Counted from the stretch's first letter, positions 27,294 through 33,654 are shown. The stretch is 61,423 bases of DNA from Kiritimatiellia bacterium (GCA_045641465.1 JAZUGW010000118.1:1-61423), one strand, 5' to 3'. A program made the numbers and translations. The notes: generated by a model from the letters alone, not told the origin.

Positions 27294-29410
27294 TGATCCC
27301 CGAAACGAATCAGCCATTCATCCACGCTGCCAAACATCGAGTGGCAGTTGGAATAGGTGTTGTCCGATTCCTTCCACGTCTCCCACAGCGTCGTCGCGCC
27401 GCGGTCGAGCATGTGGAACCAGCCCGGGAAGCCCTTGTGGAACACGACCTTCTTCGCGAGATCGAGGCGCCCGTGTTCGGAGAGATACATCAGCAGATAG
27501 CGCGTCGAGAAGATGCCCGTCGTCGGCGCGTATCCCTTCTCTTCGATCGCGCGCACCAGACGCGCCTCGGCGGCGGGAATCTGGTCGGCAGGCACAAGGC
27601 CGAGGTAGAGCGCCTGCGCCTGTGCGCTCTGCGTGCCGTTCGCCACGACGCCGTTCTTGATGTACTTCGTCTGGAACGCGGTGGCGATCTTCGTCGCCAG
27701 CGCATCGTATTTCGCGGTGTCTTCCGTCTTGCCGAGCATCCGCGCAAAGTCGCGCGTGAGCTTGACGAACAGATACCAGTGCGCGGTTCCGGTCACGTCG
27801 TCCGGCGCGCGCTCAAGCGCTTCGTGGTCGCCGATGTCGTGCGGAATGATGCCCGTAGGATGAAGCGCATCCACCAGGCCGATGTAGCGCGTGCAGACGG
27901 GATAGAACGCCAGCGCGCGATCCTTCACATCGGGATAGTGGCGGATGAGCGCCTCCATCAACACCGGCACTACCACGGTCCAGGCGATGGGACCGCCCCG
28001 CTTGCCGAAGCCGCGGTCGCGAATGCCCACATACGGCGCCGTCTCGGTGAGCCAGCCGTCCTCCGCCGCCGCATCGGCGAAATCCTGGATCGTCTTCAGA
28101 TAGAACTCGCGCATGTCCCAGTTGAGGATCATCGACTCGCACGTCGGTACGATGTCGCCGCCATAGCAGAGACGCTCGCGCCCGGGACAGTCCGTCGACG
28201 TGCCGACAAGATTGGATCGGAAAGTACGGCGACACACTTCGTGCAGGCGGGCAAGGTCGGCGTTCTTCGGCTTCCACTTCCACCGATCCGAACGTGACAC
28301 ATGGAGAAGCGACGAGATGGGTCTGAACAACACCTGCTTGGGTTGGAGCAGCGTCTTGAGTCCGCGGATTTCCACATAGCGGCAGATGTGCCAAGTGAAC
28401 GGCGGACCGAAGTCCTCCGTTCCATTCGAAGCGGCGCCACCGGCGATGAGCACGTCCTTCTGCTCCGCAACGTGCGGCGCGCCGGGTCCGCCATTGCCGC
28501 GTTTGATCTGTCCTGTGGTCTGCGTGAGCGGATTGACGCGTCCATCCTGCCACAAGCGTTCGCCGTAGACGAACTCGATGCGGTCGCCCTTCTTCGTGCC
28601 GGGCAACTTGAAACTCGGCACACCCGAACAGTTCACGCCGAAATCGACAACCTGCACCTCCCCCTCCTTGAGCCAGGTGGACTTGCCAGGAAGCAGCTGC
28701 CCCGCCATGAGCACTTGCGGCGCACGCCGTTCGCGGATCGTCCCCGCCTCGCCCTTGACCGCCACCGCCGGATGCGGCGTCGGGTCCAGCTGGCGCGTGC
28801 GGTCGACGACGGTGCCCAGCTGCAGGCTGTTCTGCACCACCGGCGATTCGCGCCAGGTCCAGTCAAGTTTTTCAACGCCGTCGATCGCGAGCTTGAAGCA
28901 GGGGCGTCCATGCGGCAACGTCGTGCGGAAACAGTGGCGTCCCCAAAACCGGAGCGGCGGCATGTTGTACCAGCCATTGCCGAGCGCGACGGTGATCGTG
29001 TTCGTCGCGGGATACGGCAGACAGCAGTGATACCTGTAATCGGGGTGGTCCACCAGATGCGTATCCGCATAGATGGACTGCGTGTAGTCGGACCACAGCG
29101 GAAACTTGGTCGGACTCATCACTGTGGACGAGGTCAATCCGCGCAGCCGCGAACCATTGATCTCGAGCTGGTAGAAGCCGAGGCACGCGATGTGCACCTT
29201 CAGGCCATCCGACGACACGGCACGACCATCCGCCCGCTTGGGAAGCACGAACGACGCGGTGAACACCGGCGACGGATCGGGCGCGTACCACGCCGCCTCC
29301 TCCATCACCGGGCGTCCGTCGCCGATCCACGGGAGGCGGCTCCAGTCCACCTCGCCCCACGCCAGGCCGGCGACCAGCGCCAGCACTCCCACGACCGTTC
29401 CTTTTTTCAT
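27290..29410 (-). CDS. Secreted alpha-L-rhamnosidase, GH78 family
   Basis: The ATG at 29410 (MKKGTVVGVLALVAGLAWG) overlaps the upstream stop (TGATG). TDCPGRERLCYGGD resembles the GH78 DCPxRxERxGWxGD motif, and a six-hairpin region follows. Confidence 0.86.
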   Translation of the reverse strand: MKKGTVVGVLALVAGLAWGEVDWSRLPWIGDGRPVMEEAAWYAPDPSPVFTASFVLPKRADGRAVSSDGLKVHIACLGFYQLEINGSRLRGLTSSTVMSPTKFPLWSDYTQSIYADTHLVDHPDYRYHCCLPYPATNTITVALGNGWYNMPPLRFWGRHCFRTTLPHGRPCFKLAIDGVEKLDWTWRESPVVQNSLQLGTVVDRTRQLDPTPHPAVAVKGEAGTIRERRAPQVLMAGQLLPGKSTWLKEGEVQVVDFGVNCSGVPSFKLPGTKKGDRIEFVYGERLWQDGRVNPLTQTTGQIKRGNGGPGAPHVAEQKDVLIAGGAASNGTEDFGPPFTWHICRYVEIRGLKTLLQPKQVLFRPISSLLHVSRSDRWKWKPKNADLARLHEVCRRTFRSNLVGTSTDCPGRERLCYGGDIVPTCESMILNWDMREFYLKTIQDFADAAAEDGWLTETAPYVGIRDRGFGKRGGPIAWTVVVPVLMEALIRHYPDVKDRALAFYPVCTRYIGLVDALHPTGIIPHDIGDHEALERAPDDVTGTAHWYLFVKLTRDFARMLGKTEDTAKYDALATKIATAFQTKYIKNGVVANGTQSAQAQALYLGLVPADQIPAAEARLVRAIEEKGYAPTTGIFSTRYLLMYLSEHGRLDLAKKVVFHKGFPGWFHMLDRGATTLWETWKESDNTYSNCHSMFGSVDEWLIRFGDQ

Positions 29411-32400: not shown

Positions 32401-33654
32401 GGTCTCGTCGCTGGAGAAGATGTCCGCCGCAAACGCGCGCACTTTCTGCTCGAAGCTCTGCGTCGCCTTCTTCTGCTCGGCGTCCAGCACGGGATTCTTG
32501 CCCACGAGCAGTGCCTGGTGCTGCTTCTCCAGCACCGGCAAAGATTCTTCAAGCTGGGCCTTGTTCGCAACCGCGGAAGACAGGGCCTCCGCGTTATTCG
32601 CCAACCGGTCGTCGAGGCTCTTCAGCTCCCTCTCATACCCGCCGGTGGCCAGCTTCGACTTCCTCCAGTTCGCCTTGACTTTTTCTAAGAGGGGCAGCTT
32701 GCTGATCGCCTCTTCCGTCAGACCGCGCACCTCCTCCATTTCAGCCTGCGTCTTGGCCTTGTCGGCCGCGAGAAGCTCGCCTTCCTGCTTGAGGGACGCA
32801 ATCTCCTCCTCGGCCTCGGCGAGATCCTTCTTCGTGTCGTGAATCTGGCCGACCACCTCGTTCAGACGCGCCGCCACTTCCGCCGGCGTATCCTCTACGA
32901 TTTCAAAACCGTCTTTCGTCTGGTGGAGCGCCTTCGTATCGACCACGTCCGCCTTCTGCGACTGGCTCTCGAGATGTTCAACCAGCGCGAGCGCCTCCTC
33001 GCTTGTGTAGCGCGTCGACGTCTCGACTTCAGGGTTCTGATCGACCCCGTCCAGCCCCTCGAGAATCTTCTGCGCATCTTCGGCCGAGAGTTTCGGATCC
33101 GTCAGCGTCCGCAGATAGTCCTTCAGCTTGCCGGCATCCGTGATGCCGCCCAAGCGCACCGCTTCGGAAAGCTGCACGAGCGTCTTGTTCGACAGCACAT
33201 CGATTTCACCGACCGGCAGCTGGGTGAAATTCGCCAGCAGCCGAACCGCCTGTTGGCGCATCTTCATCGCCTCGGGGGAGTGCGCACGCTTCGAACTTCC
33301 CGTGAGATCGATCAGATTCGGCATCATCTCCACCTTCTGTGCGTCGAAGTCGCGCAGAATCTCCGCCGCGAGCTTGCGCGCCAGCAGCGTCCGAGCCGCC
33401 GGGCTCTCCGGGGCCAACCCCAGTCTCGCGCGGACATTTGCCAAGAACGCCTCATTCGCACCGGCCTCACTGAGCGCCTTCACAAAACCTTCGCGAATCT
33501 CGCGGTTCTGCTCCGCGGTTCCGCTTTTACCCACGCCAAAGAAGGAACCAATCGCGCTATTGCCCTGCTTGACGACCGTCTCGCCGTCTACCTTGAGATA
33601 GCCGCGGTTCAGCCGGCCGATCGCATCACGAAAATTTTGAAGAGTCAATTCCAT
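29410..33654 (-). CDS. 1414-aa coiled-coil-rich protein with a central ABC1/UbiB-type atypical kinase domain; no signal peptide or TM seen
   Basis: Clean ATG at 33654 after the purine-rich AAAGAAAGGTAGAAAGAA. Kinase motifs are listed in the domain feature. The flanking regions are E/K/L/A/Q-rich and helical-looking. Confidence 0.85.
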   Translation of the reverse strand: MELTLQNFRDAIGRLNRGYLKVDGETVVKQGNSAIGSFFGVGKSGTAEQNREIREGFVKALSEAGANEAFLANVRARLGLAPESPAARTLLARKLAAEILRDFDAQKVEMMPNLIDLTGSSKRAHSPEAMKMRQQAVRLLANFTQLPVGEIDVLSNKTLVQLSEAVRLGGITDAGKLKDYLRTLTDPKLSAEDAQKILEGLDGVDQNPEVETSTRYTSEEALALVEHLESQSQKADVVDTKALHQTKDGFEIVEDTPAEVAARLNEVVGQIHDTKKDLAEAEEEIASLKQEGELLAADKAKTQAEMEEVRGLTEEAISKLPLLEKVKANWRKSKLATGGYERELKSLDDRLANNAEALSSAVANKAQLEESLPVLEKQHQALLVGKNPVLDAEQKKATQSFEQKVRAFAADIFSSDETWEMDRAEKNPAARLKALFTKNTDLIATLLDMPEADLQTVFSGPLADLMDALIGSIRDEVPSLKMLGVSIGDCFKAALPQLGDKVFAGINAKIDEKINEKSAAMSEQMKGLVKEALGGTGKDVLRQKGTRLGELKTRTLNELVKGAVDTEHGYGEFMKDAMTQYFDRVPMSIKRQMFAAAIRYMDYQKPIDQMKLSEGARVKEETRRQMLMLGAMLKGAGPILQKMMQGLSEMPINEELKLALKDMKSNLAPIPEPMVKAHLLSVVENSQGKIKAIKVKANLGAASVGQAFLCTMTSVDDQGRDVETEVVVKLLRPDVQARAEAEKQIFFDVAKGGMKNTFRSQLEGIMVEMDLTKEADNVEAGQIYTGNPFNGIAAMKLHPLVKATPSIMVLEKAPGTTVERYFTDTKAKYQAIVKDVMVTDVDGKPTTIGFKRGTSYIAQLRARKQTFDELKTLRRSMEAKQKKLVELSRKWVQEALFGSGMFHGDMHGGNIMIDDNPVAAENKGVTILDFGNAHKLSREQQESVLLMVGAASAQDTNRFLDGFRALLPPESRAEFDRKRAGEGTDENPSLHAIVHAIFYKDGTTCKQTGQRILACLQELQKEGIELPGAINNFSQSQIRLQGVIDQANEQLEEVELLMKRLAMDISDGEGTTFDKFSPTTVVKTTDLVNEEFNVYLRRVVKQEYDHAADSKKEVTLSRCYLPLTAQTGTNFQKTADGMVPPAKFQALKAERIDLLTGTDQVDKVQNIFVSLRQYCEGKFEPFSTNLKHAFDAFQDLSKQLRPKLHKRLESADVQDQWTLATNENNALDDSLSELNESKRKLEATLKLHRDGLDAMRKVIRENPAAERALEPNIRVAKIEAEKVEAQLAALQPKISTLTTRKGQVHTRVNELQAQMLALEAAANTMPDDVLDEAQLGQLKALADEVVTIYLQAQKTMLEDLAKNHASYRKEINANTSPESFFDMMAGLLQDNMWATVRRLGATGLKWVLSGKVRL
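30775..31782 (-). other. ABC1/UbiB (ADCK-like) kinase domain inside the 1414-aa protein (about aa 625-960)
   Basis: LGAMLKGAGPILQKMMQGLS, LGAASVGQAF...VVVKLLRPDV (VAVK-type Lys), MVEMDLTKEADN, SIMVLEKAPG, MFHGDMHGGNIMI (HxDxHxGN catalytic loop) and ILDFGNA (DFG). Confidence 0.72.

Follow-up and report, generated by a model that had tools for sequence, protein, structure and literature searches.

A giant UbiB/ABC1-type protein of a Kiritimatiellia bacterium and its placement in a large, unnamed bacterial clade

A gene for a giant UbiB/ABC1-type protein was analysed in a 61,423-nucleotide (nt) stretch of DNA from a Kiritimatiellia bacterium (GCA_045641465.1, JAZUGW010000118.1:1-61423; hereafter the window). 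It is a real, single gene encoding a soluble protein of 1414 amino acids (aa), and residues ~556-1065 of the product, judged by their sequence, constitute a complete atypical kinase/ATPase module with a predicted active site, from a divergent branch of the UbiB/ABC1 family. Homology searches place the protein, as a Kiritimatiellia member, in a large unnamed clade whose carriers are anaerobes from several phyla, most of them of gut or rumen type. What is new here is the recognition of this clade; hundreds of its members were already present in databases under generic names.

A UbiB/ABC1 module within a single soluble protein

The open reading frame (ORF) at 29410..33654 lies on the minus strand (ATG 33654-33652, TGA 29412-29410), with the purine-rich AAAGGTAGAAAGAA directly 5' of its ATG. 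The ORF list and the translation bear out the 1414-aa ORF reported in a first-pass annotation of the window, in which the strand was left unstated. No transmembrane (TM) helix is predicted in the product, whose highest Kyte-Doolittle mean over 19 residues is 1.17, and its N-terminus contains no signal-peptide-like hydrophobic stretch, in agreement with the same annotation. Five full-length relatives of 1372-1414 aa align with the window protein end to end at 95, 85, 77, 65 and 49% identity, and the same full-length architecture is found in five independent assemblies. The three relatives for which DNA is available have no internal stops. The 49%-identical orthologue (L001) comes from a metagenome-assembled genome (MAG) titled Kiritimatiellia bacterium, and a scan of GTDB genomes with orthologue-specific peptide patterns, which are blind to the wider clade, returned one close Kiritimatiellia MAG only.

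The ratio of nonsynonymous to synonymous substitution rates (dN/dS) was computed by region against the 65%-identical orthologue (L002), for which dS is ~0.7-1.4. It is 0.15 for aa 1-200, 0.17 for the kinase module and 0.23 for a C-terminal motif, and rises to 0.43-0.52 in the helical arms, about three times the rate of the conserved parts (0.43 for aa 201-400; ~0.46-0.48 for the C-terminal helical bundle, among the fastest parts, and similar for aa 1066-1200). As dN/dS is below 1 in every region, all parts of the protein are under purifying selection.

Assignment to the family was made by the profile and fold comparisons that the first-pass annotation had proposed. The Pfam ABC1 profile (PF03109) matches the protein in two stretches with E=5.4e-15 and 55.6 bits, above the 22.9-bit cutoff, placing it in the ABC1 family; a weaker match to the Pfam family APH is also present. 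Comparison of a 13-sequence alignment of the module (A3) with Halomonas UbiB by hhalign gave a probability of 99.1% (E=1.1e-18) over 341 columns, covering UbiB residues 30-394. For aa 540-1414, an AlphaFold2 (AF2) model from an alignment of 30 sequences has a pLDDT of 84.3 and a pTM of 0.77, with the kinase module mostly at pLDDT 84-94. The top four Foldseek matches of this model are COQ8A structures (7udp/7udq/5i35; E=4e-11 to 2e-9, target-normalised TM-score 0.54-0.61), followed by MSMEG_1954 and Rv3197 at ranks 5 and 7. Searches of the PDB with the single sequence and with a full-length profile yielded coiled-coil noise and a marginal RIO2 match; COQ8A was reached by the fold search alone.

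Every catalytic residue, the Ala-rich loop and the ExD motif are kept in the module, supporting the earlier description of an intact ABC1/UbiB core, and the four motifs named in that description (GAASVGQ, VVVK, FHGDMHGGN and DFG) are all present (Table 1). Relatives show little or no variation at K729, E742, E768xD770, D905, N910 and D929 (alignments A3 and A4). The Ala-rich loop replaces the Gly-rich loop in the UbiB family (motif I; PMC7263595), and the KxGQ motif of the N-terminal extension has been described as invariant in the family (bioRxiv 10.1101/149823). The equivalent of the latter here is K642-M-M-Q645 (KMMQ): K642 and Q645 are invariant in the clade (columns K83 and Q86 of A3), and the Gly is replaced by Met or Leu. 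The extent of ~335 aa (625-960) first given for the central domain was too narrow, as the module occupies ~556-1065 and is preceded by a conserved region at 400-555; BLASTP with aa 400-560 matches 55 of 149 representatives of the clade.

Table 1 Features of the giant protein and the two adjoining genes. Aligned pairs are window protein / Halomonas UbiB from the hhalign comparison.
Feature	Coordinates	Strand	Residues	Basis or remarks
N-terminal domain (M.L.L.NFR..iG...GYl ... N.e.R..f..AL ... FL..vR..LGL ... LL.RK)	33340..33654	minus	1-~105	
Long helical hairpin	32509..32886	minus	257-382 (helices 257-310 and 339-382)	AF2 pLDDT 78-89
Pre-kinase helical region, conserved	31990..32457	minus	400-555	many family matches begin at profile positions ~400
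Predicted UbiB/ABC1-type atypical kinase/ATPase module with KxGQ-type N-terminal extension	30460..31989	minus	556-1065	Pfam ABC1, BLASTP, hhalign, AF2, Foldseek
KxGQ-equivalent segment LKGAGPILQKMMQG	31717..31758	minus	633-646	aligned to LEALGPIFVKFGQV of Halomonas UbiB
Ala-rich nucleotide-binding loop GAASVGQ	31537..31557	minus	700-706	aligned to ASASIAQ of UbiB; G/A/A/Q invariant in A3 and A4; pair LGAASVGQAF / LASASIAQVH
VVVK, beta3 lysine K729	31468..31479	minus	726-729	invariant K170 of A3; pair EVVVKLLRPD / EVVVKIIRPD
Partner Glu E742	31429-31431	minus	742	invariant E183 of A3
ExD motif E768-M-D770	31345-31353	minus	768-770	invariant E209 and D211 of A3; pair EMDLTKEADN / ELDLTKEAAN
Catalytic loop FHGDMHGGN, D905/N910	30925..30951	minus	902-910	H/G/D/H/G/N invariant in A3; aligned to FHADMHPGN
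DFG, D929	30862..30870	minus	929-931	D and G invariant in A3; pair ILDFGNA / AIDCGIV
C-terminal three-helix bundle	29536..30051	minus	1202-1261, 1263-1324, 1332-1373	AF2 pLDDT 88-96
Extreme C-terminal motif SPESFFDMMAGLLQDNMWATVRRLGATGLKW	29425..29529	minus	~1376-1410	conserved in orthologues
NapH/NapG-like membrane polyferredoxin fused to CotH kinase, 1427 aa	33721..38004	minus		upstream gene; Pfam Fer4 families and CotH; NCBIfam NapG/NapH
Secreted GH78 alpha-L-rhamnosidase	27290..29410	minus		downstream gene; ATG 29410-29408 overlaps the stop of the giant gene (TGATG); Pfam Bac_rhamnosid6H and related families

The clade of giant UbiB-like proteins and its architecture

An exhaustive HMMER search of 1.84 billion representatives, with aa 1-1100 of the five orthologues as query, returned 860 hits at E<=1e-3, with 609 left at a cutoff of 1e-10 and 445 clusters at one of 1e-30. 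Lengths and match positions were drawn from the best 150 matches, 149 of which are non-orthologous. These 149 proteins are 672-3266 aa long, mostly 1000-2700 aa, and match profile positions ~400/550-1070 at 315-443 bits, with no comparably strong match in the first ~400 residues. All 149 representatives were matched by BLASTP with aa 560-1065 (best 40-42% identity, typically ~40%). Between subgroups, BLASTP gives no alignment of the central and C-terminal helical stretches. A profile of the module scores canonical UbiB proteins at 61-83 bits versus 265-618 bits for clade members, and ABC1 is the only Pfam family found in eleven relatives that were scanned, being present in all of them. In metagenomes, 207 stretches were confirmed by tblastn and 79 loci were kept, in which complete ORFs are mostly 1000-3150 aa at a GC content of 0.39-0.66; one of the contigs is titled human gut metagenome.

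Named sources of clade members include Kiritimatiellae, Lachnospiraceae, Duodenibacillus, Candidimonas and Anaerobiospirillum. The database entries carry labels such as 'AarF/UbiB family protein' (Duodenibacillus sp. MDY6010892.1, Candidimonas sp., Kiritimatiellae) and 'phosphotransferase' (Ca. Anaerobiospirillum merdipullorum MBU3827107.1, Lachnospiraceae). No Pfam or NCBIfam models exist for the flanking regions, and no published description of the clade was found in the literature. The initial view that the architecture is not a described family therefore holds as far as the literature goes, but the protein is not a one-off, given the 445 clusters at the strictest threshold. The size and breadth of the clade add weight to the finding; the claims of a unique architecture and of a particular GH78/CotH context are weakened. 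No relatives were found on IMG/VR viral contigs or PLSDB plasmids (tblastn) or in 5,426 E. coli genomes, and a mobile-element origin was rejected on these results. In one family locus (L011, GCA_965337195.1), the 683-aa relative P0127 lies between two enormous genes running off the locus, one with a 5729-aa product without Pfam match and the other with a 4121-aa product carrying a Laminin_G_3 domain.

Sequence comparison suggests a common plan for the clade, comprising a variable helical N-terminal part, often with a domain of ~105 aa, then the pre-kinase region and the UbiB module, a variable helical or coiled-coil arm, and a C-terminal motif of ~35 aa. The N-terminal domain is strongly conserved among the orthologues and can be aligned to the N-termini of part of the giant family, with the consensus M.l.L.sFR.iaG...iGYv ... 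N..vR ... FL...LG ... kPL.RR.iR. Among the proteins of 90 loci, a hidden Markov model of the domain matches family members only; the domain has no credible Pfam or PDB match, and its profile retrieved one orthologue fragment and nothing else from a set of 5.8 billion proteins. Other subgroups have different N-termini: a single TM helix (..FTLGIGA..) replaces the domain in ~9 of 151 relatives, and a low-GC-type region (RVATNL..FYSiEQT) is found in others. The C-terminal motif, P..FfDvMg.Vi..N...s..RlG, is modelled by AF2 as three short helices at 1380-1408. With a strict regular expression, at least 53 of the 151 representatives, low-GC and high-GC alike, have it in their last 80 aa; more were recognised by eye, and BLAST with the motif matches the C-termini of 16 representatives. 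The window protein shares the module with the other clade members, the C-terminal motif apparently with most of them, and the N-terminal domain with a subset.

The first-pass annotation had called the protein a coiled-coil protein with flanks rich in E/K/Q/L/A. The flanks are largely helical, but their E/K/Q/L/A fractions of 0.47 and 0.44 barely exceed the 0.40 of the kinase part. Five long helices of 42-62 residues show significant hydrophobic periodicity at 3.5 residues, reached by 0-4% of shuffles versus 54% for a control segment of the kinase. The heptad-type periodicity of the two hairpin helices was reached by 0 of 500 and 1 of 500 shuffles, respectively, and this hairpin is the sole confident part of an otherwise poor AF2 model of aa 1-1100 (five-sequence alignment, pLDDT 53.5). 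Together with the AF2 models, the periodicity justifies a predicted coiled coil for ~260 of the ~900 flanking residues, those in these five helices, and not for all of the flanking sequence. Matches of the C-terminal bundle to SMC, JetC, LmuB, tropomyosin and prefoldin are weak and compositional only.

Possible functions and alternative explanations

The identity and family membership of the giant protein are established; its function we infer. UbiB/ABC1/ADCK proteins are ancient and disease-linked, and whether they act as ATPases, lipid kinases or protein kinases is still debated. The giant protein has the same fold as UbiB, COQ8A-ADCK3 and Coq8 and belongs to the same family, with the KxGQ-type extension, the Ala-rich loop, ExD, the HxDxHxGN loop and DFG in common. 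It differs from them in the replaced Gly of KxGQ, the lack of a TM anchor, and ~555 N-terminal and ~350 C-terminal extra residues. Canonical UbiB proteins are ~450-550 aa long and anchored in the membrane by C-terminal TM helices, and the departure of the 1414-aa, TM-free window protein from this type, pointed out in the earlier annotation, is evident also from the equivalog models: it scores 57 bits with TIGR01982 (cutoff 487.55) and 29.4 bits with PRK04750/NF003404 (cutoff 667), far below both cutoffs, and is therefore not a UbiB orthologue. In contrast to UbiB/COQ8, moreover, it is encoded by an apparently anaerobic glycan degrader, with no quinone-pathway genes nearby.

We favour, with a probability of roughly 0.55, the reading that the giant protein is a cytoplasmic, membrane-proximal UbiB-type ATPase or small-molecule or lipid kinase on a helical scaffold. 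Mg-ATP would be bound via K729, E742 and D929, and the gamma-phosphate would be hydrolysed or transferred via D905 and N910. The KxGQ-type extension would cover the active site as in COQ8/UbiB, which would make the protein an ATPase or a small-molecule or lipid kinase and not a protein kinase of the classical kind. Located in the cytoplasm, at the surface of the membrane or close to it, the enzyme would have a hydrophobic ligand, for instance an isoprenoid quinone or a lipid; the long helical arms may form a spacer or scaffold, and the two conserved termini may provide docking or targeting.

Known UbiB-family systems provide precedents for parts of this scheme. The COQ8/UbiB ATPase is conserved from E. 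coli to human and is activated by cardiolipin membranes and phenols, the Gln of KxGQ positions a water molecule, and the KxGQ domain mediates membrane binding and occludes protein substrates (bioRxiv 10.1101/149823; PMC8346625; PMC7263595). Cqd1 and Cqd2 (ADCK1/2/5-type) have a role in the distribution of a lipid, coenzyme Q (CoQ), or in membrane contact-site formation rather than in biosynthesis (PMC8346625), offering a precedent for a UbiB module on a tethering scaffold; they are, however, eukaryotic, mitochondrial, membrane-anchored and of ordinary size, and the homology is no closer than to other UbiB proteins. Rv3197 (MABP-1) and MSMEG_1954 are soluble or peripheral bacterial ABC1-fold proteins, the former binding a hydrophobic small molecule, a macrolide (PMC6208485). 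Their PDB chains of 313-391 aa differ from the giant protein in lacking helical arms and terminal motifs and are 15-17% identical to it in structural alignment. Within the clade, the TM-anchored subgroup (~9/151 relatives) fits membrane-proximal action and echoes the anchoring of UbiB/COQ8.

Several points weigh against the favoured reading. The altered KxGQ (KMMQ here, KMLQ in most relatives) may mean that the cover of the active site behaves differently. A membrane anchor is absent in 140 of 151 relatives, and no quinone- or lipid-pathway gene was found as a conserved neighbour in the family loci. The plant ABC1 protein AtABC1K6 is reportedly a true protein kinase. In addition, the patchy spread over phyla, the stand-alone genes and the position of one relative as apparent cargo of a tail-like cluster are no less compatible with an accessory or exported protein.

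Beyond the favoured reading, it is doubtful but worth stating that the giant UbiB-like proteins could be a new functional class of the family, either an ATP-driven extractor of lipids or quinones on a long helical tether, with the N-terminal domain and C-terminal motif as its defining parts, or a delivered effector acting on the membranes of hosts or competitors. If so, a clade widespread in gut anaerobes that make no ubiquinone would mean that UbiB chemistry is not tied to CoQ biosynthesis. A TM-free giant clade with invariant catalytic residues and an altered KxGQ, in anaerobes not known for ubiquinone, would broaden the use of the fold, and would supply naturally soluble UbiB versions for biochemistry. 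They also rank with the largest proteins still without annotation in Lachnospiraceae-, Sutterellaceae-, Succinivibrionaceae- and Kiritimatiellia-type genomes.

Export from the cell is the most probable of the alternatives, although we regard it as unlikely. Giant UbiB-like proteins would leave the cell, as cargo of a contractile injection system or by another route, and act on lipids or proteins of hosts or competitors, with the conserved N-terminal domain or the C-terminal motif as loading or secretion signal; they would then be a new family of effector kinases. The position directly after a tail-like cluster is the typical cargo position of extracellular contractile injection systems (eCIS), and this is where the 783-aa relative P0093 sits, following two baseplate-wedge genes, a P2-gpI-like tail gene, a STAS gene and the gene of a 768-aa AAA+ ATPase (L009:1-9437; L010), with a 136-aa ORF just upstream of it that is homologous to the N-terminal region of giant relatives. 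The family is patchily spread over unrelated host-associated phyla, and two proteobacterial relatives are encoded by stand-alone genes among housekeeping genes. Highly variable N- and C-terminal parts around a constant enzymatic core, fast-evolving helical arms and a recent recombination tract over the giant gene (see below) would also suit an effector. However, the tail-like context is confined to one locus, represented by two near-identical contigs (L009 and L010; GCA_965333145.1 and GCA_965357675.1), and nothing corresponding to the tail and ATPase genes was seen in the remaining 88 loci examined. The window itself was negative for an eCIS-cargo position, as the neighbours of the giant gene (Obg, AKR, NapH/G-CotH, GH78, GluQ-RS and MatE) are housekeeping and glycan-degradation genes within ~10 kb. 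The C-terminal motif occurs in both monoderm (Lachnospiraceae-type) and diderm lineages and is therefore no signal for one dedicated system, and the N-terminal domain was seen on no non-family protein in the loci examined. The lack of relatives on viral contigs and plasmids also argues against export.

A second alternative, which we consider quite unlikely, links the giant gene to the gene upstream of it. In such a two-kinase module, the giant protein as cytoplasmic partner and the NapH/NapG-CotH protein would connect the redox or quinol state of the membrane to the phosphorylation of envelope- or glycan-related targets. The upstream gene is separated by 66 nt, without a terminator-like site above chance, and its product has at least four N-terminal hydrophobic helices. 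In each of the four orthologous loci (the window, L001, L002 and L003), the gene immediately upstream encodes CotH; this includes the 49%-identical L001, in which the outer neighbours on both sides differ. The >=97%-identical recombination tract takes in the CotH gene's 3' half together with most of the giant gene. By type, the NapH/NapG-like part is a quinol-dehydrogenase ferredoxin, and UbiB proteins have been linked to quinones (bioRxiv 10.1101/149823). Yet CotH is missing beside the family gene in all 79 other loci, so that this partner is specific to the orthologue group of the window protein and not to the wider clade, and the CotH protein of L001 lacks the Fer4/NapH part. The wider region is syntenic among close orthologues, and the adjacency may be inherited gene order. 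Furthermore, the CotH domain follows a hydrophobic segment (a signal-like N-terminus in L001) and may be extracytoplasmic, in another compartment. Functional coupling of the two proteins is possible.

A role in conflict or defence is very unlikely; here a kinase-type protein, its coiled-coil arms resembling those of SMC-like defence proteins, would serve an anti-phage or inter-bacterial conflict system as sensor or effector. In relatives, the catalytic loop gives weak Pfam matches to TCAD9 (kinase-like, from ternary conflict systems) and to PD-T4-6 kinases, and the distribution is accessory and patchy, but all these matches are below the family thresholds and limited to the generic catalytic loop. 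A further point in favour of such a role is that a survey of recurrent neighbours in 88 loci revealed small conserved partners in low-GC (Firmicutes-like) loci. In 25 of these loci, a protein of ~300 aa with an N-terminal GNAT domain is encoded beside the giant gene, mostly just downstream and in a few upstream (L009:12377-13360, L023:6867-7841, L026:12553-13524, L086:10174-11118 and 21 further loci), and a 282-aa protein recurs in ~6 of the 25. Neither partner gene was found in the window, and the neighbours there are not defence-island genes. The PADLOC matches of the window protein reflect coiled-coil composition only, and membership in a defence system was rejected because PADLOC gave coiled-coil or catalytic-loop noise only. 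Other apparently conserved neighbour clusters across the 88 loci were rejected as antisense shadow ORFs or near-identical contigs.

Finally, that the long ORF is an annotation artefact, such as a fused or chimeric assembly or several genes rather than one product, was raised solely by the unusual length of the predicted product, has no supporting point, and is hardly credible given the recurrence of the architecture in five independent assemblies, the lack of internal stops, purifying selection on every segment and the same order of parts in hundreds of relatives.

Neighbouring genes and other features of the window

On the minus strand, the gene order is Obg, AKR, NapH/NapG-CotH, giant gene, GH78 (glycoside hydrolase family 78), GluQ-RS-like and, after further genes, MatE. 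AKR, an aldo/keto reductase with Fer4, overlaps the NapH/NapG-CotH gene by 4 nt. The window also encodes GH106, a sulfatase-maturase-like protein, pyruvate formate-lyase with its activase, and a gyrA/parC-type topoisomerase subunit A; with GH78 and Obg, this predicted gene content fits an anaerobic glycan degrader. The 1427-aa upstream protein consists of a NapH-like four-helix part, a NapG/NapF-like polyferredoxin with several 4Fe-4S motifs, an unassigned region of ~400 aa and CotH; such a fusion of a redox module to CotH is unusual. The CotH protein of L001, which has no ferredoxin part, starts with a signal-like or TM segment.

The TGATG at which the stop codon of the giant gene meets the start of a secreted GH78 rhamnosidase, recorded in the first-pass annotation, was confirmed, and the two genes overlap by 1 nt. 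The ATG of GH78 opens MKKGTVVGVLALVAGLAWG..., a signal-peptide-bearing start. A mechanical ORF call places the start at a GTG at 29479, inside the giant gene (27290-29479); the ATG at 29410, with its typical signal peptide, appears more plausible. As to the linkage with CotH and GH78 that the annotation had emphasised, CotH is conserved in the Kiritimatiellia orthologue group and not in the 79 other loci, and GH78 is not conserved in L001 and L002: the downstream gene is GluQ-RS-like in L002, and in L001 a rhamnosidase is two genes off on the opposite strand. No promoter- or terminator-like sites above chance were found by a sequence scan, and co-transcription of the giant gene with its neighbours is plausible.

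In DNA comparison with L003, identity is ~72-95% for most genes within the shared 14 kb. Over a tract of ~5.4 kb (30072-35470) it is at least 97%, apart from a pair of intervals at ~93% (34722-35021). The tract extends from midway along the CotH gene across the giant gene's first ~1195 codons, after which identity is 66-78% in the coiled-coil arm and rises at the 3' end. The tract looks like the result of recent homologous recombination. The C-terminal coiled coil was considered as a hypervariable cassette, which was rejected, as the locus-wide profile against L003 puts the coiled coil at background divergence and the rest of the gene in the recombination tract.

Elsewhere in the window, a pyruvate formate-lyase-like glycyl-radical enzyme is encoded beside a radical-SAM/SPASM activase at 44848-48263 (minus strand), an HrpA-type DEAH helicase with DUF3418 at 5161-9147 (plus strand), and a 1283-aa protein with a Peptidase_C10 (streptopain-like) domain at 165-4016 (minus strand). 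Two ORFs of 1273 aa each, at 9209-13030 and 57219-61040 (both minus strand), have no Pfam match and are mutually unrelated (BLASTP E>1).

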